Shown piece by piece: positions 5,666 to 34,281 of a DNA stretch of 37,321 bases (position 1 is the first letter of the stretch; the number at the start of each line of letters is the position of its first letter). Source of the DNA: a virus (taxonomy: Duplodnaviria > Caudoviricetes). The stretch spans positions 1 through 37,321 of IMG/VR virus record IMGVR_UViG_3300012942_001477. One strand, written 5' to 3'. Under the pieces are notes generated by a model, which worked only from the letters and a program-made list of their open reading frames with translations, searched no databases and was not told the origin of the DNA. The position numbers and the translations under genes were made by a program.

Positions 5666-5920
5666 ATGAGCAAGAAGAAGACAGTAGATGCGAACGGTGA
5701 TCTTCCAGTAATTGAACGAGTACCAGTTGACGCGCGTAAGGCACTTCGCAGTTCCGCGTCTCTCCGTCCCGGACCGGCAATGATGATGGCCGCCGCCGAA
5801 GGGAACCAGGAGGCTCAGGCAATTCGAGACAGTTGGAGATTCAACTTTCCCATTCGCACAGTTTCTCCCGAGGAATTGGCTGATATCTGCGACCGCGGCC
5901 GGGTAACCTTCCATGGCTGA
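5666..5920 (+). CDS. Hypothetical protein (84 aa)
   Basis: AGGAG RBS then ATG at 5666 (MSKKKTVD...), in frame with track ORF 5543..5920; overlaps the next start. Confidence 0.65.
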   Translation: MSKKKTVDANGDLPVIERVPVDARKALRSSASLRPGPAMMMAAAEGNQEAQAIRDSWRFNFPIRTVSPEELADICDRGRVTFHG

Positions 5921-6365
5921 TCTACATCCGCTCGACCTCGCTTACGATCGATGGTGGCGCCACCCTTCGAGCAGACCGCCAGTAGATGAGCTGATGGCCA
6001 TCGTTCTATCCCACGCGAAACGACTAACAGGTGACGAGGATGCGGCGGCAGACGCGACCCTGTACGTTATCCAGAATCTCCATCGTTTCGTTCGTCAGAA
6101 GGCGAACTCGTTTTCCCACTGGATATTCTCCATCTGTCGCCGGCGAAGACTTGAGTCCTACCGTCGCCGAGATCATGAGGAGTTCATCGATGAAACCTAC
6201 CCATCCGACGAGGGGGAGTATCGGGATTACTCGCTACTGTCTCCGTCACTTCGATCTATCGCACAGGATCTTGCATCCGGGAAGACGATTGACGAGTTGG
6301 CTGCAAAGGAAGGTGTCGAGCCAGCCAGCATAAGACGAAGAATTTTGCGCCAGTGTGTCACGTAA
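5913..6365 (+). CDS. Phage ECF-type sigma-70 family factor, probable late-gene regulator
   Basis: Region-2-like DEDAAAD...FSHWIFSICRRRRLESYRR and region-4 HTH LSPSLRSI...GKTIDELAAKEGVEPASIRRRI; last gene before the late operon. Confidence 0.75.
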   Translation: MADLHPLDLAYDRWWRHPSSRPPVDELMAIVLSHAKRLTGDEDAAADATLYVIQNLHRFVRQKANSFSHWIFSICRRRRLESYRRRDHEEFIDETYPSDEGEYRDYSLLSPSLRSIAQDLASGKTIDELAAKEGVEPASIRRRILRQCVT

Positions 6366-6526
6366 TAAGGCGGTCGACGCCTATACAGGCAGACGGAAGT
6401 TATGCATCGCGCCTAGCTCGACGCCAGTGGCGCTGAATGAAAGCCACTCAAAGAGAGCCATACTCCGAGGTCGGCGCGGCGGCTCCAAAGGCCGCCCCGC
6501 TCGGAGGCTAAGATTCTGGAGATCCG

Positions 6527-6844
6527 ATGAACCCCTTTGCACCCATTGCTCATTACCTGCTGAATATTCTCCGTGCCGTCGGCGGACAGCTAGCCGTCAA
6601 GACTGAGACCTTCCTGAAGCAGTTCGTCAAGGAAGATGTTGCGAAACTGGCTATTGACGCTGTGACCGTCATCCAGTCCGAGATGCCTGATGCCGATGGA
6701 ACTGTAAAGCGTGATGCTGCCGTTGCCCAGCTCAAGTCGGATCTTGCATCCGTTGGCCATGATGTTCAGACTTTCGCGCTATCCACACTGAATTGGTTGG
6801 TAGAGACGGCCCTTCAGGCCGTGCTGACAGGAGTGGCTAATTAA
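6527..6844 (+). CDS. LL-H-family holin-like protein (tentative)
   Basis: AVTVIQ...DGTVKRDAAVAQLKSDL...LNWLVETALQAV resembles the LL-H holin C-terminal pattern (G..K...A...l...IEaAV); GGAG RBS; no strong TM helix, so function uncertain. Confidence 0.4.
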   Translation: MNPFAPIAHYLLNILRAVGGQLAVKTETFLKQFVKEDVAKLAIDAVTVIQSEMPDADGTVKRDAAVAQLKSDLASVGHDVQTFALSTLNWLVETALQAVLTGVAN

Positions 6845-7167
6845 TGATCGTACATCTAACCGAGGAGCAGGTGGAGTTGCTTTCGCTGATGTGTCTGGAT
6901 GTGCTCGGGCAGTTATGCGCCGACCGGCACTACTACGCCGGCAGAGAGAGGGAAGACCTCGAAGATCTGGTCGAACATCTCGGAGAGACACACGAAGTTC
7001 TGAATGCAGCTAACTCTAATGTCGTCGACATTGACGCTCGTGGACTCACCCCTGCCGAACTAGAAGAGGTCATTCGCAGGGCCATTGCGAAAGCCACTCC
7101 TAAGATCATCGCAGAAGCAGTCAAGACTGTACGGGATACCAATCGTCGCCGTGCCAGCGGCTGCTAA
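6844..7167 (+). CDS. Hypothetical protein with tape-measure C-terminal-like tail
   Basis: TAATG coupling and AGGAG RBS; residues from IDARG onward align ungapped with the end of the tape measure protein. Confidence 0.75.
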   Translation: MIVHLTEEQVELLSLMCLDVLGQLCADRHYYAGREREDLEDLVEHLGETHEVLNAANSNVVDIDARGLTPAELEEVIRRAIAKATPKIIAEAVKTVRDTNRRRASGC

Positions 7168-7501
7168 ACGTCTCTGCCGAAAGCCAGGCTGTCCAGCCCT
7201 GACCGACACCGGTTACTGCGATGCACATGCACCTGAGGCAAAGCAACAAAAGGAACGGTGGAGAGGTTCCAGTTCGTCCCGTGGATATGATTCGGCCTGG
7301 CAGCGCGTGCGCCTCCTGGCGCTACGCCGCGATGGCTTCCGTTGTGTGAATTGCCGGGACAAGTACAAGCGAGTCACACCGGCTCAGTCAGTCCACCACC
7401 TGAAGAAGGTGGCAACGCATCCGCATCTTCGGCTGGAGCTGTCTATCCTCATTTCCTGCTGTGCGCCGTGCCACGAAGAGCTGGAGAAGCTGGCCGAGTA
7501 G
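7151..7501 (+). CDS. Packaging-associated HNH endonuclease (HK97 gp74-like)
   Basis: Likely GTG start at 7151: MPAAAKRLCRKPGCPAL...YCDAH, RGYDSAW, RDGFRCVNC, VHH, CAPCH; located just before cos and terminase. Confidence 0.88.
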   Translation: MPAAAKRLCRKPGCPALTDTGYCDAHAPEAKQQKERWRGSSSSRGYDSAWQRVRLLALRRDGFRCVNCRDKYKRVTPAQSVHHLKKVATHPHLRLELSILISCCAPCHEELEKLAE

Positions 7502-7506
7502 ATTCG

Positions 7507-7600
7507 GAGGGGATAGGGGGGCAAATCTCTATTGCTCCGACCCCTGCCAGACCCAGCCCTGGTCGAATTTTCGCGTGGTCGAATTGAAGGGTGGGGGTAT
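7507..7600 (+). other. Probable cos / packaging-initiation region
   Basis: GGGGGGCAAATCTCT...AGACCCAGCCCTGGTC...AATTTT...GGGTGGGGGTAT between the HNH and the packaging genes, the layout typical of HK97-like 3'-cos phages. Exact cut site not determinable. Confidence 0.6.
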
Positions 7601-7621
7601 CGCCTGCCCGAAAAGGACATT

Positions 7622-8920
7622 TTGAAGGTTCACGAACTCCAACTCGACAAGCTCAACGCGAACAGGGGCACGAAGCGCGGCCAGAAGGCCATCATTGCAT
7701 CCCTGGAGCGTTTCGGCGCTGGCCGGTCGGTGCTGATCGACAAAGATGGCCGGGTAATCGCTGGCAACCACATTATCGAGAACGCTGCCGTCGCCGGTAT
7801 TGATGAGGTTGTAATCGTGCCGTCAGACGGCACGAAGATCATCGCAGTGCAGCGCACCGATCTATCCCTGGATGATGCAAAGGCGCGAGAGTTGGCGATA
7901 GCCGATAATCGTAGCTCTTCCCTTGGTCTTGAATGGAATCCCGAGATCCTCGGACAGCTTGCCATCGACCTCGATCTGAAGCCGTTCTTCACGGATATTG
8001 AACTTCGTGATGTCATCGGCGCATCATTCGGCGAGACGAATGACGGTGACGGCTGTGAGGTTCCTGTACCCGTAGACCCAGTTGCCAAGCCAGGCGATCT
8101 ATACATGCTTGGTGACCACCGCCTTCTTTGTGGCTCAGCAACCGTTCAAACCGATGTTGATCGTTTGATGGACGGCGAGCTTGCCGACCTCATCTGGACC
8201 GATCCTCCTTACAACGTCTCATACGAAGGCAAGACGAAAGACAAACTGCGCATCGACAACGACTCAATGGGCACAGATGTCTTCCGGTTATTTCTCTATG
8301 ACTCCTTTGTATCGATGATAGCGGCGGCCAAACCCGGCGCTTCGATCTATGTGGCTCACGCCGACCTTGAGGGATACAACTTCAGAGGTTCATTTATAGA
8401 TGCTGGATGGTATTTCGCTCAGTGTCTCGTATGGGTCAAACAGGCGATGGTGCTTGGACGCTCCGATTTCCAGTGGCGTCACGAACCGATCCTGTATGGA
8501 TGGAAGCCAGGAGCAGCGCATTCGTGGTATTCAGACCGCAAGCAGACGACTGTATTAGAGTTTGACCGACCGTCACGAAGTACAGATCATCCGACCATGA
8601 AACCGGTCGAATTGATTCGATACTGTCTCGAGAACTCGTCAAATCGCGGCGATATTGTCCTCGACCTCTTCGGCGGCTCCGGCTCCACGCTGATTGCATG
8701 TGAGGAGACAGGCCGCAGATCCCGGCTAATGGAACTCGATGCTCGGTATGTGGATGTGATCGTTCGGCGCTGGGAAGAGTTGACGGGAAAGAAAGCAGTT
8801 TTATGTCAGCAGGACGACGACCAAAACCCACAGCACTCCACGAACTCGAAGGCACTCGCAACCGGCGGGGCAACAATGAGCCGAAACCTTCTGGAATTCC
8901 CGGCTGCCCAAAGCATCTAG
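7622..8920 (+). CDS. ParB-like N-terminal domain fused to beta-class N6/N4 DNA methyltransferase
   Basis: SLERFGAGRSVLID...IAGNH and LAIADNR (ParB-like); TDPPYNV (motif IV), HPTMKP, DLFGGSGST (motif I). AAGGA RBS supports TTG at 7622 rather than 7532. Confidence 0.92.
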   Translation: MKVHELQLDKLNANRGTKRGQKAIIASLERFGAGRSVLIDKDGRVIAGNHIIENAAVAGIDEVVIVPSDGTKIIAVQRTDLSLDDAKARELAIADNRSSSLGLEWNPEILGQLAIDLDLKPFFTDIELRDVIGASFGETNDGDGCEVPVPVDPVAKPGDLYMLGDHRLLCGSATVQTDVDRLMDGELADLIWTDPPYNVSYEGKTKDKLRIDNDSMGTDVFRLFLYDSFVSMIAAAKPGASIYVAHADLEGYNFRGSFIDAGWYFAQCLVWVKQAMVLGRSDFQWRHEPILYGWKPGAAHSWYSDRKQTTVLEFDRPSRSTDHPTMKPVELIRYCLENSSNRGDIVLDLFGGSGSTLIACEETGRRSRLMELDARYVDVIVRRWEELTGKKAVLCQQDDDQNPQHSTNSKALATGGATMSRNLLEFPAAQSI

Positions 8921-17366: not shown

Positions 17367-17761
17367 GCCAGATCATCTGCGACACCTGGGCGCAGGCCAG
17401 GTACGACCTCCATCTCTCCGAAGATGAGTTCTGGGTTATGACTCCGAAGCAGTTTCACCTGCTCTGGCGCCGTCATCGGGAGGACATTCTGCACCGAGAG
17501 ATGATCGCTGCGTTCACGACTTCGGCTGTCATCAATCACTCGCTCTGCCGTCCTGAAATGCCGGTTCAGCCCAAAGATTTCATGCCAAACTTCATAGTCC
17601 CGACTGTACATAAGCCGCAAGGTAACCCGATTCCTTTCGAGGTTCGGGGCGAGTTTGAAGCGAAGCGAGCGCGGATCAGCAAGCTACTCAAGAAGTACAA
17701 AGCGACGGGTAAGGCAGACCCATACTTGATCGAACTAGGATTGGTGGCCGCTGATGGCTGA
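17333..17761 (+). CDS. Tail assembly chaperone -1 frameshift extension (gpT-like)
   Basis: The -1 frame is open from 17327 to 17761 and includes LHLSEDEFWVMTPKQF; continuous with track ORF 17438..17761. Confidence 0.8.
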   Translation, partial: GGSGGSGDRGLSQIICDTWAQARYDLHLSEDEFWVMTPKQFHLLWRRHREDILHREMIAAFTTSAVINHSLCRPEMPVQPKDFMPNFIVPTVHKPQGNPIPFEVRGEFEAKRARISKLLKKYKATGKADPYLIELGLVAADG

Positions 17762-18230
17762 CGTAGACATCGATACGACATGGCTCGATGAGTTGGGCGA
17801 CCGGCTCGAAGGTATGACGACAACGGAGCTGCCGCAGATCGAAAGAGCAGGATTGCGGGAAGTCAATAAGGTCGTCAGGCCTGCCATTGCTGCGGCTACT
17901 CCAATCGCATTCCAGATTCCATCTCCGCTCTCTAATGCCCTCCGCACTGGTGAGCTCAGAGCAAGCGTCCGTGCCCGCGTGCTTGAACCCAAAGATGACC
18001 TCGGTCGTGCAGCGGTGGTTGATTTCGGCAAGTACAACTATGTCGCTAACTGGGTCGATGCTGGCCACGTACTTGTCAAAGGTGGCCGCCGGGATAAGGG
18101 AAAAGAGATAGGCCATGTAGCCGCTTTTCCCTTTGTTCGAACAGTACAGGATTCAATGCAAGCAGAGGCGGAAGAGGCGATGGTTGCTGGTGCCGATGCA
18201 GAGGTAGATAGGATCATCAATGGCAGGTAG
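17754..18230 (+). CDS. HK97 gp10-like neck/tail protein
   Basis: RTGELRASV, YVANWVDAGH, VAAFPFVR match the gp10 pattern (TG.Lr.Si...ya..vE.G...a.PF.rp). Confidence 0.75.
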   Translation: MADVDIDTTWLDELGDRLEGMTTTELPQIERAGLREVNKVVRPAIAAATPIAFQIPSPLSNALRTGELRASVRARVLEPKDDLGRAAVVDFGKYNYVANWVDAGHVLVKGGRRDKGKEIGHVAAFPFVRTVQDSMQAEAEEAMVAGADAEVDRIINGR

Positions 18231-20799
18231 AGTAGTTTTTCAGGCAGACGTCAGTAAGTTCACGCAACCCGTAGAGCGTTCTGCGACTGTCGTCCGTGAT
18301 CTTTCGAAGGCCCTCAAGGAGCAGGAGAAGGCTGCTCGTGAGTCCTTCCGCGACCAGATCACGAATGCGAAAGCCGCCGGTGCTTCTGTAGAAGAGTTAC
18401 AGCAGATCGAACAGCAGCGATACAGGTCTCTCCTCGCCCTTCAAGCCGCACAGAAGCAGATCAATGCCGAGACAGTCTCGAATGGCAAGGCAGCCGTCAA
18501 TTCTGCCGAGGCGCGTGCTGAAGCTGAGAATCTGGTCACCGCCGCATATGAAAAGCAGCTTGCCGCCGTCAACGCTACGTTCGGCGCAATCAAAAAGCAG
18601 CACGCGGAAGTACAGGGCAGTATCGCGGGCGGCGCTGCGATCCGCACCGTCGACGGCGGCCAAAATGTCCGTGCCGTTGAGAACTTCCTGTCCAAGACTC
18701 TCGGCTTGGAAGGCGCACTACAGGCGCTCTTTCCCCTGGTGGGTGGTGTAGCCTTCATCCAGATTCTGAGCGAAGGCGCTGAGAAGCTGTACGAGATGCA
18801 CCAACGTGCTGAGGAGGCCGGTAAGGCCCTCCAGGCTGCGATGGATGACGCACACGCAAAAACCTCGCTGACCATCGATGATCTGGCGATCCAAGCCGAC
18901 AAGCTCCAACTTAATATAGATAAGCTCAAAGGCCATCCGGGTAACGGATTGCAACTCGGCCTGGACGAAGCAAAGAAGGCCGCAGACGACCTACTTTCAT
19001 CGCTATCCGCTGATCGAAAAGAGCTTGAGGCACTCTTCAAGGAGTCTCACGTCGGCTCGGTAGATGCATGGTTATCTGGTTCCAATCCGACCGGCAATCA
19101 GGAAAAGTCAATTAAGGCCCGGCAGGATGCCTATATCAAAGGCATCCAGTCCATCGAGACGGATGTCAATGGACGCTACGCCAACTCCAGCACGGACGAT
19201 GAGCGTAAGGCGCTTGATGCAGAGAGACGTCGCCGGATTGAGCAGGCAATGCGTCAGGAACTGGCCAATGTAGCCGGTGAGCGCAAGGATCTCGTAAGTG
19301 GAAATACGACCATTGACGTAGATGCTAAGTCAGGTCAGGTATCCACGAAGCAAACACACCAGAATGACGTTCGCATTGGGGAACTCGATACCTACGCGCA
19401 ACAGGTACAGTCCCAACTCTCCCTGTATCAGTATCGCGCCAAGATTGCCGATCTGATGGGCCAGGAACAGACCCTCAAAGGCGGCAAAGGCAGCACGGGT
19501 CTCGCAAACCGCGCTGCTGAGGATCAGCGTCGGCAGTGGGAGACACAGCTCAAGAAACAACAGAGCAACGCCGACATGACGATTGCTCAGGAGCGCGAGT
19601 TCTGGCTCGCGCGTCTCCAGGTCGCGCAAGTCGGCAGCACGAATTACCTGTTTGCTTACGATCGGTTCTTGGATGCGACGAAGAAACAAAGTGAGCAGCA
19701 GCGTAAACAGATAGACGATCTCCGCAAGGCTAACGCGGAGGCTTCAAAGCAGCAGACCGAAGCCTTGTATAAGGCGCTGAATCCCGGTGCAGTTGCTCAA
19801 TCTAACGGAATCGTAAATGCCAGTAATTCAGCCAACCGTCTAGAGGATGCAAAGACCAAGGCCGGATACTCGAGTGCCGAGTCGGACATAAACTTCCAGC
19901 GTCAGACCAAGCAGATCACGGAGCTGGACGCCGCGATGCAGCTTCAGGCTCTCCACACGAAAGAGTACCAACAGGCTCTCGCCAAGCTACAGGAGCAGCT
20001 TGCGGCTGTAGGTACGGGACCTGATGCCGAGGCTCAGCGAAACGGGATTCAGACTCAGATTGTAGACCTAAACTCCCGCCGTGCATCCCAGGCCAATCAG
20101 GATCGTTTTGCTACGTGGGATGGCTCAACGTCTGGAGCCACCGGGGCAAAGGATGCACTTAATGACTTCGTTCGCTCCACACGGGACGCAGCCACGCAGA
20201 TGCGAGATATCACCGCTTCAATCCTGAATAGCGTAAACGACCAGCTTGCCAATGCAATCGTTGGCGATAACACCGACTGGGGCAGCACCTTCAAAGGTAT
20301 CGGGAAGCAGGTTGCCAAGTCTGGCCTGGAGCGTGCGGAAGGGTCTGTGCTCGGGGCCTTCGGACTCGGCAAGCCGGATGGTTCCATCACGAATCCCCTG
20401 AATGTCCGAGTCGTCCAAGGGCTTGAGGATGGGATCGACAGCCTCTTTGGTGATTCCGATGACTCCGATGGTGGGGGCGGAATCAGTTCCTTTTTCAAGT
20501 CCATCTTCGGCGGTGGTAAAGCTGTCGGCGGCTCAGTCGACGCGGGTACTACTTATCTCGTTGGTGAGAAGGGGCCGGAGTTGTTCACCCCCGGCACGTC
20601 TGGAGCCATCACCCCGAACAACAAGCTGGGCTTCGGCGGTGGCGACAATATCAGCTACTCCATCGATGCAAGGGGAACCGACCCCGTGCAAACCGATATG
20701 CGCGTGAGAGCGGCTATCGTAGCGGCTCACCAATCGAGCGTGAAACAAGCCGTGATGCAAGTCCAGCAAAAGTCAACACGTCAACCCCGGAGAAGGTAA
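18220..20799 (+). CDS. Tape measure protein (859 aa)
   Basis: Ala/Gln-rich helical protein; C-terminal AVGGSV...YLVGEKGPELFTP...GAITPN motif. Confidence 0.92.
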   Translation: MAGRVVFQADVSKFTQPVERSATVVRDLSKALKEQEKAARESFRDQITNAKAAGASVEELQQIEQQRYRSLLALQAAQKQINAETVSNGKAAVNSAEARAEAENLVTAAYEKQLAAVNATFGAIKKQHAEVQGSIAGGAAIRTVDGGQNVRAVENFLSKTLGLEGALQALFPLVGGVAFIQILSEGAEKLYEMHQRAEEAGKALQAAMDDAHAKTSLTIDDLAIQADKLQLNIDKLKGHPGNGLQLGLDEAKKAADDLLSSLSADRKELEALFKESHVGSVDAWLSGSNPTGNQEKSIKARQDAYIKGIQSIETDVNGRYANSSTDDERKALDAERRRRIEQAMRQELANVAGERKDLVSGNTTIDVDAKSGQVSTKQTHQNDVRIGELDTYAQQVQSQLSLYQYRAKIADLMGQEQTLKGGKGSTGLANRAAEDQRRQWETQLKKQQSNADMTIAQEREFWLARLQVAQVGSTNYLFAYDRFLDATKKQSEQQRKQIDDLRKANAEASKQQTEALYKALNPGAVAQSNGIVNASNSANRLEDAKTKAGYSSAESDINFQRQTKQITELDAAMQLQALHTKEYQQALAKLQEQLAAVGTGPDAEAQRNGIQTQIVDLNSRRASQANQDRFATWDGSTSGATGAKDALNDFVRSTRDAATQMRDITASILNSVNDQLANAIVGDNTDWGSTFKGIGKQVAKSGLERAEGSVLGAFGLGKPDGSITNPLNVRVVQGLEDGIDSLFGDSDDSDGGGGISSFFKSIFGGGKAVGGSVDAGTTYLVGEKGPELFTPGTSGAITPNNKLGFGGGDNISYSIDARGTDPVQTDMRVRAAIVAAHQSSVKQAVMQVQQKSTRQPRRR

Positions 20800-20803
20800 G
20801 TCA

Positions 20804-21439
20804 ATGTCTGTCCTGTTTACGTTCAATGGGTTGAAGGTCATCTCGACGCCGTTGGAGCCCGATCCCGTCTCCTTCGATTTCTCGGTGACTGATTTCGTAG
20901 CGCCGAACAACAACACCTTCACCGGGTCGCAGCAGATCGTTGACTGGCAGTCTTCTCTCATCTCGATTTCCGTGCAGCTTCCACCGATGACGCGGGAGAC
21001 GGGCGAGGACTGGGCGGCTTTCCTGATGCAGTGCCGGGGCATGTCGAATGCTTTCCTGATGGGGGATGCGACCAACAAGATCCCCCGAGGAACCTGCGCT
21101 ACTACCGGCGCTCACCCGCTGATAGACGGTGCCAACCAGACCGGCTATCAGCTCAACACAAGGGGCTGGGTAGCAAATGCTCACGGCGTTCTACGTCGCG
21201 GAGATTGGATACAAATCGGGTACCGGGTGCATAAGGTACTCGACGATGTGGATGCGGATGCGAGTGGCAAAGCAACGCTGCCGATCTATCCCCAAATCCG
21301 AGAGAGTCAGGCAGACGGGGCTGACATCATCACCACCAACACGCAGGGGCTGTTTCGCCTTGCCAGCAACACGAATAAGTTTTCAATCGGTCTGGCCAGC
21401 ATTTACGGCTTCCAGTTCGATATCAGAGAGGCTTTTTAA
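20804..21439 (+). CDS. Distal tail-like protein
   Basis: Directly after tape measure; FTGSQQ...W...LPPM...AFL..CRG pattern. Confidence 0.7.
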   Translation: MSVLFTFNGLKVISTPLEPDPVSFDFSVTDFVAPNNNTFTGSQQIVDWQSSLISISVQLPPMTRETGEDWAAFLMQCRGMSNAFLMGDATNKIPRGTCATTGAHPLIDGANQTGYQLNTRGWVANAHGVLRRGDWIQIGYRVHKVLDDVDADASGKATLPIYPQIRESQADGADIITTNTQGLFRLASNTNKFSIGLASIYGFQFDIREAF

Positions 21440-22027
21440 ATGCCGAGAGCAGGAATGACGGTTGCGTTTGCAGCCGCAATGGCTGCACGAGTAATTCGCC
21501 CATGCTTCCTGGTCCAGCTCCAGTTCAAGACTGATGTTCTGAATCTCTGGTCCGGCACGTATCCGGTCACCTTCGGCGGGGCTACCTTCGAAGGTGCAGG
21601 ATCGCTGATGACCATCTCTGGCATCTCAGAGGACTCGACCGTCGAGGCGAAGAACGTAACGATCACCGTCAGCGGTATCCCGTCCGAGATCATCAACGAC
21701 GCTCTGAACGAAACGCAGCGCGGATTGAAGGCTCAGGTCTACCTCGGCCTATTCGAGCAGGATGGCGTAACGCTGGTCCCTGATCCGGTGCTGGCGTACA
21801 CAGGCCGCATCGATCAACCGACGATCACTGACTCGGGTGATACTTGCACGATTGCGATCAACATCGAAAACGCACTCGCGGATATGAATCGTCCTGTGGA
21901 TCGGCGCTACACCGATGCTGACCAGCAGCACGACTATCCCGGAGACCTCGGCTGCTCTTTCGTTGCAGCGATCCAGAACATCCAGATTTACTTCGGCTCT
22001 CTGCCGAGCAATATCAACAACGTATGA
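21440..22027 (+). CDS. Tail tip / hub protein
   Basis: LWSG...F.GAG, YTGRID, RRYTDADQQHDYPGDLG; synteny. Confidence 0.7.
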   Translation: MPRAGMTVAFAAAMAARVIRPCFLVQLQFKTDVLNLWSGTYPVTFGGATFEGAGSLMTISGISEDSTVEAKNVTITVSGIPSEIINDALNETQRGLKAQVYLGLFEQDGVTLVPDPVLAYTGRIDQPTITDSGDTCTIAINIENALADMNRPVDRRYTDADQQHDYPGDLGCSFVAAIQNIQIYFGSLPSNINNV

Positions 22028-29188: not shown

Positions 29189-29599
29189 TCAAGACCGCGG
29201 TCCATTAGGATCTAACAGCTTTGCCAAGATACCGAAGGTAATTAACAACAGGACGGTTTCCGGTGCCCAAAAGAAGAAAACAACTAAAGAGTTGCTTAAC
29301 GGAAATAGCGGAGCAGCCAAATATACCAATGCGCAATGGACAATAAGGGTGATCGTAAATGCTAAAGCTAGCTTCGACCTTCTCAGCAATTTACCATAAG
29401 CAACAAGAAGTAGCCCAATTGTACAAATAGACCAAATAAGCTTTTGAGAAAGTTCTCTCCTTTCAGGACCAAGATAGAAATCTGTAAAAATCGAAGCAAT
29501 ACCAAAGACCAGACCAAGTACGATAGTGAAAGGGCGGTTCTTCAGCCCCTGGACCCTAATCTGCTCTTTGACATCACGATTTCGCATTAATTTTGGCAT
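29189..29599 (-). CDS. Putative Rhs immunity protein, four predicted TM helices
   Basis: Directly downstream of rhs (alternative ATG at 29587 gives TAATG coupling); visibly AT-rich; four hydrophobic stretches. Confidence 0.7.
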   Translation of the reverse strand: MPKLMRNRDVKEQIRVQGLKNRPFTIVLGLVFGIASIFTDFYLGPERRELSQKLIWSICTIGLLLVAYGKLLRRSKLALAFTITLIVHCALVYLAAPLFPLSNSLVVFFFWAPETVLLLITFGILAKLLDPNGPRS

Positions 29600-32500
29600 T
29601 TGGCGTTCTGTTCTTTATAAAAGTTGATTCCGTTGCTGATACCAACATATCCGAGATATGCTGCGCCACCGACTGCTGCAACATCACCTATTCCGCTTTC
29701 CGCAGCAGCGCCTGCTAACAATCCAAGAGAGGGCTCTCCTATCGTATGAAGAACTCCCCATACACCTATGCCTACACCTGGAGCAGCTTCCTTAACCTGA
29801 TCAATCAGCCCCATTATTTGACCTCCCCTCTTTGCAGTCTCAGCTTCCGCTGCCAGAGCTCCAAAGGTCACCGCTGCCAAGCCTAGCCCCTGACAGTGTG
29901 AGGGTTCGTAATGAACTTGTATGTTATTGCTTGGGGTGGGAGCACTACTGCCACCGCCGGAGCTGGAAGGGTTGATCGGGATAGCACCGAGATCTGGTCC
30001 GATCTGCGGATCGGGACCAGGGTCATTGCTATTCACATTCACAGTTGTGTCTGAGCTCCCATCATCTACCCAGCTACCGTAGTTGGATGCGCAAGTGAAT
30101 GAATCAACGATCCAAGTATTGACAGAGTACTGATCCGGTTCGGCTGTGCCATACGGGAAAGCACCTAAACAGTATCCGTTTTTCCCACTCGGATCGACCA
30201 TACCTAATGGATTATTCCGGACATACACATACCGATTGAAGCTCTGAGGATTGGTCAAGTCATAGCTCCCATCATAGGGATCAGGACTCATCCATCGACC
30301 TTTTCCAGGAGAATATTGACGGAACTGCGCATGATTCGTCCCGCTCACGGCGTCGAAGTCCATTCCCGCATACCCATACTGATCATAATTTGTTCCAGTA
30401 ACCGTATATGCATCTCCGAAGGGGAGAGTGTTATACGTGGCATCAATTGCGCCAGCGTAGTCCGTGTGGATCCGCTCTGCTCCGATCCAGTCCTCATGCT
30501 GGAAGTGGATCCCAAAGTTGTAATCGAAGGCTAGAGGTTTGCTTCCCCAGTAACTCTGCCATCCGTACCAGTTTCCCGTGCTTGGCTCCCAAATGGAGAT
30601 TCGCCGATTGAATTGATCGAAGAGGAACTCCTGAGAATAGGCACCTGTGATGTCCTGACGAATACGACGATTTAGCGCGTCGTATGTATAGGTAGCGGTG
30701 CTGCCCCCGTCGACAGCCGTGACATTGCCTTCTGCGTCGTAGGTATAAGTGTGAATGCCGTCATTGACCAGATTACCCGCTGCATCATAGCCAAATCCAG
30801 CCATGCGATTGTTTGACGGATCGTAGTTCACAGAAAAGTAGGAGGAGCCTCCATTTTGAGACCATCGGTTTCCGTATCGATCATAGTCACTGGAATAGGT
30901 GCTTGATCCCTGAGTGAAGCCCTTAAGACGGTCGAATTCGTCATATGTAGTACTCATATTGCCCATGACCGCATCACTGCTCGAAATGAGTCGGTTTCCG
31001 TGCCAGTTGGCAGTAAAGCCATAAACCTGGTTGCCACCGCTACAGCCCGGCTGCGCTGATCCGCTGCACACCCAGCCTCCGTTGGGACGGCCCATAGTGT
31101 CGTAGGTGTTTACACCTTTCAATCCATTACCGAGATCCCAATTCACCGGGCCGAATGGACTATTCGTCACATTAGAAACAAGCGAAGCTGGGTGAGTTGA
31201 ATCGGGCAATGAGTTCGAGATCGAAATGACCTCACTCGCTGGGTTGTAGGTGTACGATGTGACCTGTCCGATCGTGTTACTGCTGGTCTTATCATTGCTT
31301 ACAGAAAGCAGATTACCGGCTAAATCGTAGGTATAAGAGATCGATCTGTCCCGTGATGCGTTTCCACACCCGGAAGGGAAACACTGGACACTCTGTCTTA
31401 TATGGCCCATCTCGTCATAGCTAAAGATCGTTGCAGCGGAAGCTGCTCCAATATAGGAGAGGCGTCCTTTCAGATTGTACTGGGGTTCAGCCCAACCGAT
31501 ACTCGTATCGTAGTGATAGACCCGAGATGGGGTTCCATCACTGTATGTAATACTCTCTAGCCGACTGAGGCTATCATACTGTGTTGTTGTCGTGGTGGTC
31601 AGTGTTCCGATCTGATTGGCACGGGGCCTTATCCGAATGACCTGAAGGCCTGTCGAATTGTACGAATAGCTATACGTCGTGGGTCCACGTTCCGGCTCGT
31701 TGGTATAAGTTGTTCGCCCCAAAAAGTCTGTCCGAAGAACTCGCTGTTGAGCTCCCTGTGTGATTGTGGTCGTACCGCCTGCCGGATCGTAAGAATATGT
31801 GGTCAGATAGCCCACTCCGGGAATGTCCAAACCGCAATTCTTCGGGGAATCTGCTTGTTGGGTGTTCCCCGACACCTCACAAACTGCCGTGATACGTCCG
31901 AATGCATCGTATTGGATGATCTTTTGCACCCCATTCGGATCCGTCACTTTGACCGCGCGGGAATTGTATTCATACGTTGTGCTTCCGTCAGCGGTGTTAA
32001 TACTTGTGACACGGCCTAGAGCATCATAACTGTATGCGGTCCCATCTCCCGAACATTGCTTAGGTGCTACGAAGCCGTTATTCTCATATTTCGTCGAGAC
32101 GAAGCGCAGATTACCGACCGGATCGTAACAATAATCAGTCTGATACCAGTCATTCCCGCCTGGAGACTGTCCGTTATGCGTCGCGCTCCGGCTGAATCGA
32201 CCGTAATCATCATAGATAGCGTCCGTCTCCGCATTGCTGTCCGAATTGAGTGCCGTGAAGACGTCGACTTGGTTACCCCACGGACCCTGCACATACTCAT
32301 ACCTTATGTTGCCACCATCAGCCCTATCGATACGTGCCGGTCTCAGTAATTTATCGTATTGTGAATACTGAATTCGTGGCGAAGTTGGAAAATTCGCGTC
32401 TGATGCACTGAGCTGGACACCCGACATTGCATCATAACTGGAATAACTGGGAACGGATACACCGCTAGACGGGGTAGGTGGCGTGATCTGTGTAGCGAAG

Positions 32501-34281
32501 CCCTGTGTGGAATCGTACGAATAGGTTGTCGTCCCATTCGGACCTGTGGAGGAAAGCGGGACGCCAGCATCATTATACGTCGTCGTAGTAGCCAAAAAGG
32601 TCCAAGGGTCGATCCACACATTAGATGAGGTTGCGTTGCCTCGTGGCCCTGTAGCGGCTATGTGCTGTGGTAATCCTGAAGTCGACGTAGGCGTTTGCTC
32701 GTCGTAGCCGAATGTCTGCTGGGCGATCATATTGCCAATATGATCCACGGTTAAAATCTGAGAAACTCGCCCCGGTGGCTGATAATTGTAGGTTGTATTT
32801 GTGAGGACGCCCCCGCCGTAGTCGCTGACAGACTCTCTGACCAAATTAGAATCAGTGTAGTCATCGATCGTCTGCTTCGAAGCGCCGCCGTTAAGGCTCG
32901 AAGTTACCGTAGTCTCGATGATCGGAAGCGCTACACCTAAGCCATCGCACGCCGTTATACCGTTGTAGCAAGTTTGTCGATCAAGCAGGGGGGTGCCACC
33001 GACACTGCCTTGATACACCTGCCGGTGTGTCTCATAGAAAATTCCTCGCCAAAGAGTCCATGCAGGTGAAGAAAATCGGTATAGAGTTTGGTTGTTAGTC
33101 TCATCCTGTACCAGCGTCGTATAAGTGTGATAGGAAGGGTAGGAACGAGGGTCGTTTACCGCAGTACGAGTATAGGTCCTCGTCCCATCGGATGTGGTAC
33201 GGACAAGTCTCCCTGGAGCGCCGTCCGCATTGATGGCCGCCCCGCAATCTCCTGAATACTGATAGGAGATTGTTCCGCCCGTCGGCAGAGTCACCGAAGC
33301 CAGACGACCTGTTTTGGCTCCGCTGATTCCTTGAGTGTCCTCGTAATTGAATTGATAGTATGTCCTATCTGCTAACGTGATCCGGTCCACCAGATCATTC
33401 TGTAGCGGCCCGTAGTTTAGGATCGGATTGCCTGATGAGTCGTAGCATCCGAAGTTCGTAGCAACGGTATAAGTCCGATAGGACATCGTCGCGGTTGCAG
33501 TCGTGCTCCCATCAGACTGACGGGCAACATTATAGGTAAAAGTGAGCGGGCTCGACGCATTTCCGGCACCGCCAATCGTTAAAGCAGTCGTCCCAAGTGT
33601 ATCTGTAAATGAGCCTCCATTTATGTATGGGCTCCCATTACCTGCAATGGTGTTGCCATTGGTATCCGTAGTTGAACCAATCGCTAAAAAGCCATTCGCG
33701 GTGTAGATGCTGTTAAAGACAGCAGCAGCAAGGATCTTACCCTGAGCATCATGCACATTCGTTCCATCAAACCAGTAGCCGGAACCATCGGAGGTTGTAC
33801 CGTCTCCGGATGCCCCAGGCACCCCGCCGACGCCACCACAAGGAGCTGTCCATGTGTAGTTAAATATGTGTTTGACACCGCGTGAATCTAGGTAAGTATA
33901 GTCTGTTTGGATAAATGCAAGTTTAGGCGGTGGACATGTCAGCGTTTGTAAATCATAGGTAACATATCCCCCCATATCTCCAATCACGCCACGAAGCCCC
34001 CAGTTGGGGGATGGTACCCAAGATTGGCTGCCGGAAGATTCCGCAGCAGACCAGATCAATCCGTCATACACAATTTTGTAGTTGAACGGCATTCCACGTC
34101 CCGACTTACTGACAATAGGAATCTCAAAATGAACATTGAGATTTCCGATGTTGATCGAGTCGAAACCACGGTTATCAAAAGAACCAAAAGCGTATAGTCC
34201 CGTTCCTGGCGCTTGGGCCAACGAAAACATCGAAAGAAGGCCAGACAAGACCAGAACTGCTAATAAGCGAACTCGCAGCAT
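29587..34281 (-). CDS. rhs: Rhs / YD-repeat polymorphic toxin with N-terminal Sec signal peptide
   Basis: Many YD repeats (YSYDALGRV, YTYDLAGNL, YTYDAEGN); core GRWMSPDP...NPQSFNRYVYVRNNPLGMVDPSG; N-terminus MLRVRLLAVLVLSGLLSMFSLA-Q. Confidence 0.95.
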   Translation of the reverse strand: MLRVRLLAVLVLSGLLSMFSLAQAPGTGLYAFGSFDNRGFDSINIGNLNVHFEIPIVSKSGRGMPFNYKIVYDGLIWSAAESSGSQSWVPSPNWGLRGVIGDMGGYVTYDLQTLTCPPPKLAFIQTDYTYLDSRGVKHIFNYTWTAPCGGVGGVPGASGDGTTSDGSGYWFDGTNVHDAQGKILAAAVFNSIYTANGFLAIGSTTDTNGNTIAGNGSPYINGGSFTDTLGTTALTIGGAGNASSPLTFTYNVARQSDGSTTATATMSYRTYTVATNFGCYDSSGNPILNYGPLQNDLVDRITLADRTYYQFNYEDTQGISGAKTGRLASVTLPTGGTISYQYSGDCGAAINADGAPGRLVRTTSDGTRTYTRTAVNDPRSYPSYHTYTTLVQDETNNQTLYRFSSPAWTLWRGIFYETHRQVYQGSVGGTPLLDRQTCYNGITACDGLGVALPIIETTVTSSLNGGASKQTIDDYTDSNLVRESVSDYGGGVLTNTTYNYQPPGRVSQILTVDHIGNMIAQQTFGYDEQTPTSTSGLPQHIAATGPRGNATSSNVWIDPWTFLATTTTYNDAGVPLSSTGPNGTTTYSYDSTQGFATQITPPTPSSGVSVPSYSSYDAMSGVQLSASDANFPTSPRIQYSQYDKLLRPARIDRADGGNIRYEYVQGPWGNQVDVFTALNSDSNAETDAIYDDYGRFSRSATHNGQSPGGNDWYQTDYCYDPVGNLRFVSTKYENNGFVAPKQCSGDGTAYSYDALGRVTSINTADGSTTYEYNSRAVKVTDPNGVQKIIQYDAFGRITAVCEVSGNTQQADSPKNCGLDIPGVGYLTTYSYDPAGGTTTITQGAQQRVLRTDFLGRTTYTNEPERGPTTYSYSYNSTGLQVIRIRPRANQIGTLTTTTTTQYDSLSRLESITYSDGTPSRVYHYDTSIGWAEPQYNLKGRLSYIGAASAATIFSYDEMGHIRQSVQCFPSGCGNASRDRSISYTYDLAGNLLSVSNDKTSSNTIGQVTSYTYNPASEVISISNSLPDSTHPASLVSNVTNSPFGPVNWDLGNGLKGVNTYDTMGRPNGGWVCSGSAQPGCSGGNQVYGFTANWHGNRLISSSDAVMGNMSTTYDEFDRLKGFTQGSSTYSSDYDRYGNRWSQNGGSSYFSVNYDPSNNRMAGFGYDAAGNLVNDGIHTYTYDAEGNVTAVDGGSTATYTYDALNRRIRQDITGAYSQEFLFDQFNRRISIWEPSTGNWYGWQSYWGSKPLAFDYNFGIHFQHEDWIGAERIHTDYAGAIDATYNTLPFGDAYTVTGTNYDQYGYAGMDFDAVSGTNHAQFRQYSPGKGRWMSPDPYDGSYDLTNPQSFNRYVYVRNNPLGMVDPSGKNGYCLGAFPYGTAEPDQYSVNTWIVDSFTCASNYGSWVDDGSSDTTVNVNSNDPGPDPQIGPDLGAIPINPSSSGGGSSAPTPSNNIQVHYEPSHCQGLGLAAVTFGALAAEAETAKRGGQIMGLIDQVKEAAPGVGIGVWGVLHTIGEPSLGLLAGAAAESGIGDVAAVGGAAYLGYVGISNGINFYKEQNAKCQN

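Follow-up and report, generated by a model that had tools for sequence, protein, structure and literature searches.

A small phage gene ends in a tape measure tip of foreign subtype: a possible plug of rival tails

The 37,321 nucleotides analysed here (IMG/VR record IMGVR_UViG_3300012942_001477, referred to below as the window) represent a temperate siphophage. The genes are ordered as integrase, excisionase-like gene, sigma-like gene, holin-like gene, a small ORF, HNH gene and methylase, followed by HK97-type head genes, tail tube, tape measure protein (TMP), distal tail protein, hub, a DUF6950 protein and a J-like fibre (Table 1). The same DNA is also embedded in a 265-kb metagenome contig and the phage is therefore likely a prophage; locus L045, which is letter-identical to the window, was not considered independent. 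The best genome match of the prohead protease (56%) is found in a Granulicella MAG, which suggests an acidobacterial host. Among the ORFs scanned between positions 1 and 6365 no replication initiator, helicase, primase or clear repressor was recognised; this early region is short and mostly orphan, and the head and tail genes look complete. An AT-rich direct repeat of 21 nt (2760-2780 and 2938-2958, 90% identical) lies in the intergenic space between divergent early genes and is possibly an operator. Further downstream, a cell-wall hydrolase gene (PF07486, 15669-16064) is located between the head-closure and tail-terminator genes and distant from the holin-like gene, the tail-completion (Neck1) gene (17754-18230) is found between the tail chaperones and the TMP, not before the terminator, and a 1564-aa RHS-repeat protein is encoded antisense after the tail genes (29587-34281, minus strand).

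Table 1. Features of the small ORF, its surroundings and the tail genes to which it is compared, with positions in the window.
Feature	Position	Strand	Remarks
Sigma-70-region-2 protein	5913..6365	+	PF04542, E 2.5e-7
Holin-like gene	6527..6844	+	TAA overlaps the ATG of the ORF (TAATG)
AGGAG, Shine-Dalgarno-like site	6829..6833	+	10 nt 5' of the ATG of the ORF
107-aa orphan ORF (P0001)	6844..7167	+	TMP-tip module behind an acidic helical N-part
ORF N-part, residues 1-57	6844..7014	+	net charge -10; helices predicted at 7-31 and 37-56
ORF TMP C-terminal tip module, residues 58-105	7015..7158	+	AAP subtype, by profile scores and tree
Packaging-associated HNH gene	7151..7501	+	PHROG 144, E 3e-29
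Own tape measure protein, 859 aa	18220..20799	+	PF09718; PHROG 8892
Own TMP tip, AAH subtype	20662..20799	+	AAH model 93.3 bits, AAP model 27.1 bits; tree
Distal tail protein and hub (gpL/HDI-like)	20804..22027	+	PHROG 1302, PHROG 2048, PF09931

The first-pass annotation of this DNA had placed a small gene before the packaging genes, and indeed the ORF adjoins the HNH gene that precedes the terminase. The HNH gene likely begins at a GTG, a start set by comparison with the HNH gene of a related locus (L001), and then overlaps the final five codons of the ORF. The intact frame, the coupling to the holin-like gene and the overlap with the HNH gene point to late expression of the ORF, and the sigma-70-region-2 protein is a candidate late regulator. 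Neither a sigma-70-like promoter nor significant RNA structure (z -0.48) was found in the region upstream of the ORF. The codon score was 13.1 in frame versus -14.8 and -66.3 in the other plus-strand frames; the in-register antisense frame scored 17.1. The holin-like gene itself has weak matches, to PF09682 (E 0.0032, sub-threshold for Pfam) and to the holin families PHROG 2609 and 608 (E 0.002-0.004).

The acidic helical N-domain described earlier is borne out by the net charge of the N-terminal half (-10) and by the helices predicted in it. The AlphaFold2 model of the ORF (mean pLDDT 78 and pTM 0.49 for the whole model) has a third helix at residues 70-103, with a block pLDDT of 84-90, so that the long terminal helix typical of TMP tips is predicted here too. 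The tip module is made up of a strand-like VVDI, a DARG motif, the helix 70-103 with its A-T-P kink motif and a terminal RR. Searches of Pfam, PHROG and PADLOC with the ORF yielded no significant match.

The relation between the ORF and the TMP of the phage was proposed on basis of an ungapped match at the extreme C-terminus of both proteins, which was reproduced exactly: ORF residues 63-102 (from nt 7030) and TMP residues 815-854 (from nt 20662) share 14 of 40 residues, and both segments are followed by five further residues and a stop. The Smith-Waterman score of this match (61) was reached by one of 5000 shuffles. Taken alone, the match is borderline, since the comparison covered 630 protein pairs from the window, one unrelated pair (1446-1775 versus the TMP) obtained the same score, and pairwise BLASTP did not report it. 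The two tips do not form a repeat at the DNA level, with 53 of 120 nt and 13 of 40 third codon positions in common, and they were absent from the output of a repeat search. Comparison with a profile was more informative. An HMM of 99 distinct TMP C-termini, which had been recruited with TMP residues 740-859 and from which the own TMP was excluded along with the four TMPs closest to it, gave 32.5 bits on ORF residues 61-105 (E 3.3e-9 among the 759 six-frame segments of the window), a score second only to that of the TMP itself and well above that of the next segment (9.3 bits) and the best of 5000 shuffles (12.7 bits). With IDARG masked 17.6 bits remained, and on a larger tip profile the ORF reached 47.6 bits. 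Moreover, the length from DARG to the end, 44 residues, falls within the range found in TMPs (36-49).

A chance or convergent origin of what might be a generic strand-plus-amphipathic-helix motif would fit the borderline pairwise score and the short, helical nature of the region. It is largely refuted by the test with the 99 TMP ends. Scores of 32.5-47.6 bits on independent TMP-tip profiles stand against at most 12.7 for shuffles, and a chance origin leaves the position of the match at the exact C-terminus and the in-register, subtype-specific proline to coincidence; we consider it extremely improbable. Thus, on sequence grounds, the end of the ORF is firmly homologous to the C-termini of PF09718-bearing TMPs. 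A longer TMP profile aligned to the ORF from around residue 55-60 to the end, and the upstream GG..VGE.GPE part of TMPs is therefore absent. The ORF is not a whole tape measure protein, considering its 107 residues, its position between the holin-like and HNH genes and the presence of the true TMP at 18220-20799. Neither is it an internal deletion of one TMP, as residues 1-58 match no TMP or locus.

The comparison of TMP ends of acidobacterial and related siphophages revealed two well-supported subtypes, in which the spacing between DARG and P is two residues (AAH) or three residues (AAP). These labels were coined in this analysis, and the set of 197 distinct tips comprised 52 AAH, 96 AAP and 49 others. 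On the full subtype models the ORF scored 46.1 bits for AAP versus 24.7 for AAH. Because the spacing of the ORF had served as the pattern for recruiting the majority of the AAP tips, the test was repeated on 11 AAP and 19 AAH tips of other origin, namely locus L048 and the protein and genome searches (the ORF was one of the 37 rows in the profile used for the genome search); the ORF then scored 43.9 bits for AAP versus 22.5 for AAH and the own TMP 27.1 versus 93.3. In a tree (57 rows, 52 columns) AAP and AAH were separate, with support 99/96; the ORF fell within the AAP clade, where two TMPs of acidobacterial prophages were its neighbours (95/88), and the own TMP fell within AAH. In agreement with this placement, the nearest foreign tips were 54% and 51% identical to that of the ORF, against 34% for the own tip, which ranked 24th of 121 tips by score against the ORF, and the AKATPKII of the ORF holds the A-x-P-x-I kink motif of AAP tips in register. 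Some features do not conform. The best raw score among those 121 tips was that of an AAH tip (84), although an AAP tip (L354) scored 95 in a later comparison. In addition, the G-to-P spacing is three residues ending in D or N in 94 of 95 AAP tips, whereas the ORF has two and thus lacks both the AAP spacing feature and the near-invariant D before the P; none of the 12 matches to a two-residue G-to-P pattern were TMPs. Taken together, profile scores and tree indicate that the module is a foreign TMP end of the AAP subtype, from another phage lineage than the own TMP, and not a copy of the phage's own TMP as originally supposed.

The foreign subtype also makes it unlikely that the ORF times the assembly of the phage's own tail, another of the roles put forward earlier. 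More generally, an accessory factor of the own tail, be it an assembly timer, a placeholder or an ejected virion cargo, would be in line with the late position and with the motif and helical register that the ORF has in common with the own TMP tip. Such a factor should not carry a foreign subtype, however, and it lies outside the tail gene block. In addition, no copy turned up in close relatives that have nearly the same head genes (L001, portal 84%), and the ORF would thus be dispensable. We regard this role as very unlikely.

What a free TMP tip might do can be deduced from solved tail tips, in which the last 25-35 residues of the TMP form a three-helix bundle (lambda gpH 818-842, PMC10721106). 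In T5 the last 35 TMP residues were resolved (10.1101/2022.09.20.507954), and in JBD30 the last 33; in the latter phage the upper baseplate protein is contacted by basic residues at the TMP terminus, and polymerisation of the tube follows the anchoring of the tip (PMC11445458). The homology span of the ORF is approximately the span resolved in these three phages. The tips of JBD30 gp46, T5 TMP pb2C and lambda gpH resemble that of the ORF in having a terminal amphipathic helix of similar length with basic end residues, whereas the ORF is a free protein of 107 residues with an unrelated N-part, encoded outside the tail block. The ORF tip matched no solved chain in sequence, nor did searches of solved-structure sequences with tip and hub alignments give a match; the docking role is therefore transferred by position and not by alignment. 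Immediately before its tip, the own TMP weakly resembles T5 pb2 1127-1167 (E 0.2). By analogy with JBD30 (PMC11445458), the distal tail protein and hub are the expected partners of a TMP tip. Tip contacts may differ between systems, considering that the density between the TMP end and the iris of RcGTA has been assigned to a peptidase (PMC7296036), and a 2022 review called the step by which the TMP end nucleates tail assembly open (PMC9022992).

The reading that we prefer, with a probability of roughly 0.35, is that the ORF encodes a late plug, specific to one subtype, that blocks the tail tips of rivals and leaves the tails of its own phage unaffected. What was observed directly is the homology of the tip, its foreign subtype, an intact and coupled frame and the position of the gene. 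From these we infer that a protein in which a private acidic helical N-part is joined to the tape measure tip of a different phage lineage would probably be expressed late, along with the genes for lysis and packaging, would trimerise and would occupy the tip-docking site (the hub) in nascent tail tips of AAP-lineage rivals. The rival tails would stall and the own phage would be spared by its different, AAH, tip type. Expression would be lytic, and the target would therefore be co-induced or co-infecting phages rather than invaders of a quiet lysogen. The plug is ranked first because a late gene that copies the own tip should poison the own tails, which a foreign tip would avoid; accordingly, among the roles proposed earlier the foreign subtype fits the plugging of competing phages better than the timing of the own assembly. 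The ORF carries the tip span by position, terminal arginines included, and potential rivals exist, as AAP tips are common in prophages of related hosts (two of 25 positive genomes have two tips). On the other hand, the ORF lacks the TMP segment of 100 or more residues upstream of the tip as well as the near-invariant D, late-only expression would limit the benefit, and both the apparent lack of full-length relatives and the pattern of conserved columns (see below) argue against the plug.

If a free tip does block rival tails, rivals would be hindered through imitation of a structural docking peptide, and self-immunity would come from subtype mismatch with no antidote gene involved, whereas both Tab and Tai require an antidote. 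It would also provide a short natural reagent to study the nucleation of tail assembly by the TMP end and the degree to which the pairing of tip and hub is lineage-specific. The foreign subtype in any case makes for a sharp and testable prediction.

The tip of the ORF has diverged considerably. It retains DARG, PA, AI, A-P, I and the terminal R, or 11 of the 15 columns with a conservation of 80% or more in ten genome-derived AAP tips, but it scored 45-50 bits where 36 of 37 held-out AAP tips scored 55-86 (the 37th, at 8.6, had been misfiled). Its branch in the tree is long (1.32 versus a median of 0.39) and its composition was flagged as atypical. Neither third-position saturation (25 of 124 four-fold sites versus 0.30 among real AAP pairs) nor the GC content at four-fold sites (12 of 24 versus an AAP median of 0.52) was informative on selection. 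The retained columns are not clearly skewed to conserved sites (11 versus 13.6 expected, 4 versus 7.2 and 4 versus 5.5; without the pattern columns 3 versus 4.4, 2 versus 6.4 and 6 versus 6.8). Yet despite this divergence, and a one-codon difference that preserves the frame, the ORF has no stop and has kept the Shine-Dalgarno-like site and the coupling.

Full-length relatives of the ORF were found neither among 5.8 billion proteins at near lengths, which gave 14 candidates only, nor among 1.84 billion representatives, where the seven other matches were repeat proteins (five of the seven were viewed and rejected). IMG/VR, 50,697 phages, plasmids and three overlapping samples of 401 acidobacterial genomes likewise yielded none, so that the recommended survey of related prophages for the same small gene came back empty. 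A further homologue search returned 99 candidates, none of which scored, the best values in the ESM Atlas (0.77 for the whole protein, 0.83 for residues 1-58) were both under the bar of the tool, and Foldseek searches of viral models and the PDB with the model of the ORF gave no match. Within the databases covered the ORF is thus a singleton. The slot before the HNH gene is variable, with an unrelated 111-aa ORF in L001, a putative holin-like gene directly before the HNH gene in L048 and a 259-aa ORF in L005.

These data suit a second explanation almost as well as the plug, namely that illegitimate recombination put a foreign TMP 3' end in frame behind a small unrelated gene and left a tip without a role that has been drifting since. 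We rank this mosaic scar almost equal to the plug, and if it is correct the locus is an ordinary mosaic joint. The orphan status of the ORF in protein, IMG/VR, phage and plasmid searches, the variable slot, the long branch, the scores below those of real tips and the unselective retention of columns all agree with a scar, as does TMP-end debris in two acidobacterial genomes (G147 and G840), which also counts against the plug. A drifting scar would not be expected to keep its frame intact with ribosome-binding site and coupling after so much divergence, frame-preserving indel included, and its junction would not need to lie at the border of the tip module, without the upstream GG..VGE motif, unlike the debris in G147. 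Moreover, the neighbouring holin-like gene has no relative in IMG/VR either, and orphan status therefore says little in an undersampled host group.

The searches for tips in the three overlapping samples of 401 acidobacterial genomes gave 25, 9 and 14 matching genomes, in which only TMPs, broken TMPs and relics were seen. The tip-bearing frames of less than 400 residues were interrupted or truncated TMPs (G335, G358, G423 and G956), relics (G147 and G840) or false matches (G068 and G390). The decayed TMP end in G147 (L382) also adjoins an RHS-like gene. In the decayed prophage of G840 (L379, G840:C76:1015-2064) two TMP tip copies, 83% identical, flank a small two-gene pair that resembles an antitoxin-toxin module (PIN-like).

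Tail-assembly interference by small prophage genes is already known. The Tab protein of Pseudomonas phage JBD26 halts tail assembly in a way that is linked to the TMP C-terminus (PMC10884400). The genes for Tab and TaiEcA run against the late operon and are active in the lysogen. Both are countered by late genes in sense orientation, of which anti-Tab is located between the terminase genes and AtiEcA precedes the packaging module (PMC10884400, PMC11364771). Tab and anti-Tab share with the ORF their small size, a location near the terminase and a link to the TMP C-terminus and, putatively in the case of the ORF, to tail assembly, and anti-Tab also the presumably late sense orientation. Tab itself differs: it is antisense, has a promoter of its own and is made in the lysogen, whereas the ORF is sense-oriented and upstream of the HNH gene. 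A TMP origin of Tab or anti-Tab is not described in the available text of PMC10884400; the tip of the ORF is TMP-derived. The tai and ati genes of phi80 and its satellites are likewise tail-assembly interference genes, with AtiEcA in the late operon before the packaging module, but the target of Tai is the central fibre or needle rather than the TMP site, Ati has an antisense tai gene as its partner, and the text available of PMC11364771 does not report TMP mimicry. The TMP is also a target in phage-host conflict for the Avs18 sensor (PMC13581612) and for gp45 of mycobacteriophage NBJ (10.64898/2025.12.12.693979); these act on internal TMP segments and are not TMP copies.

When compared to these systems, the ORF departs from Tab in its layout: it is not antisense, has no promoter of its own that we could detect, does not lie between terS and terL and has no anti-Tab partner. 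Its layout is that of anti-Tab and AtiEcA, a sense gene beside the packaging genes, where lateness itself is deduced. In its lysogen-expressed, Tab-like form the tail-blocking defence initially suggested finds no support in the layout, since the ORF is sense-oriented and TAATG-coupled and no sigma-70-like promoter was found upstream. The layout and the link of Tab action to the TMP C-terminus (PMC10884400, PMC11364771) raise the question whether the ORF could be a counter-defence decoy, a late free tip that soaks up a Tab-like host or prophage factor recognising TMP C-termini, so that the own tails assemble. A decoy should, however, resemble the tip that it protects, and with a tip of the other subtype it would need a past tail swap or an inhibitor of broad range. 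There is no adjacent antisense cognate defence gene, as the minus-strand ORFs in 6366-7624 all overlap plus-strand genes, PADLOC gave no match for the ORF, and the TMP sensor Avs18 was modelled on a central segment and not on the tip (PMC13581612). We consider a decoy unlikely. As the first-pass annotation had stated, no gene of this design appears to have been described: no account of a free TMP-tip mimic was found in the literature searched, which included few subscription papers, and the available text of PMC13243795, PMC13728456 and 10.64898/2026.10.15.759431 contained nothing relevant to free TMP tips.

Returning to the plug, a second small tip-bearing ORF was found in a related phage. 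Pattern scans of IMG/VR DNA gave 114, 12 and at least 120 loci (the last of an estimated 220), and among the 246 loci listed in all, 74 of which had flanks of only 300 bases, there was one other chimeric small ORF; L125, L147 and L301 were rejected as such, because they resemble broken TMPs. This ORF of 71 residues (L155:834-1049, minus strand, which equals G001:C1:44783-44998) carries a TMP-tip patch and belongs to a complete phage, G001, with a capsid 59% identical to that of the window. It lies some 10 kb from the TMP tip of G001 itself, and its N-part is unrelated to that of the window ORF. It is a member of a family of 11 loci (L368-L378) that share an RKWADLIDP helix and have a variable strand-helix end, and whose genes lie in front of the terminase or at the junction of the head and tail genes. 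The existence of this second ORF favours the plug; against it, a true C-tip was present in only one of the 11 loci, the G001 member (39.5 bits), where it looks like a one-off patch. Five other members scored 6.5-19.3 bits on a TMP N-terminus profile (shuffle maximum 5.9). It is thus conceivable, if doubtful, that temperate phages repeatedly build small late TMP-end proteins as allele-specific tail-assembly poisons, in which tip subtype would separate self from non-self, as with the AAP tip of the ORF and the AAH tail of its phage, and that the RKWADLIDP family swaps TMP N-end-like and C-end modules. In G001 the same slot before the HNH gene is occupied by an ORF (G001:C1:53455-53778, minus strand) that carries the sub-terminal GG..VGE motif of TMPs (15.7 bits, E 0.009 among 22,520 segments) behind what is presumably a twin-arginine-like leader.
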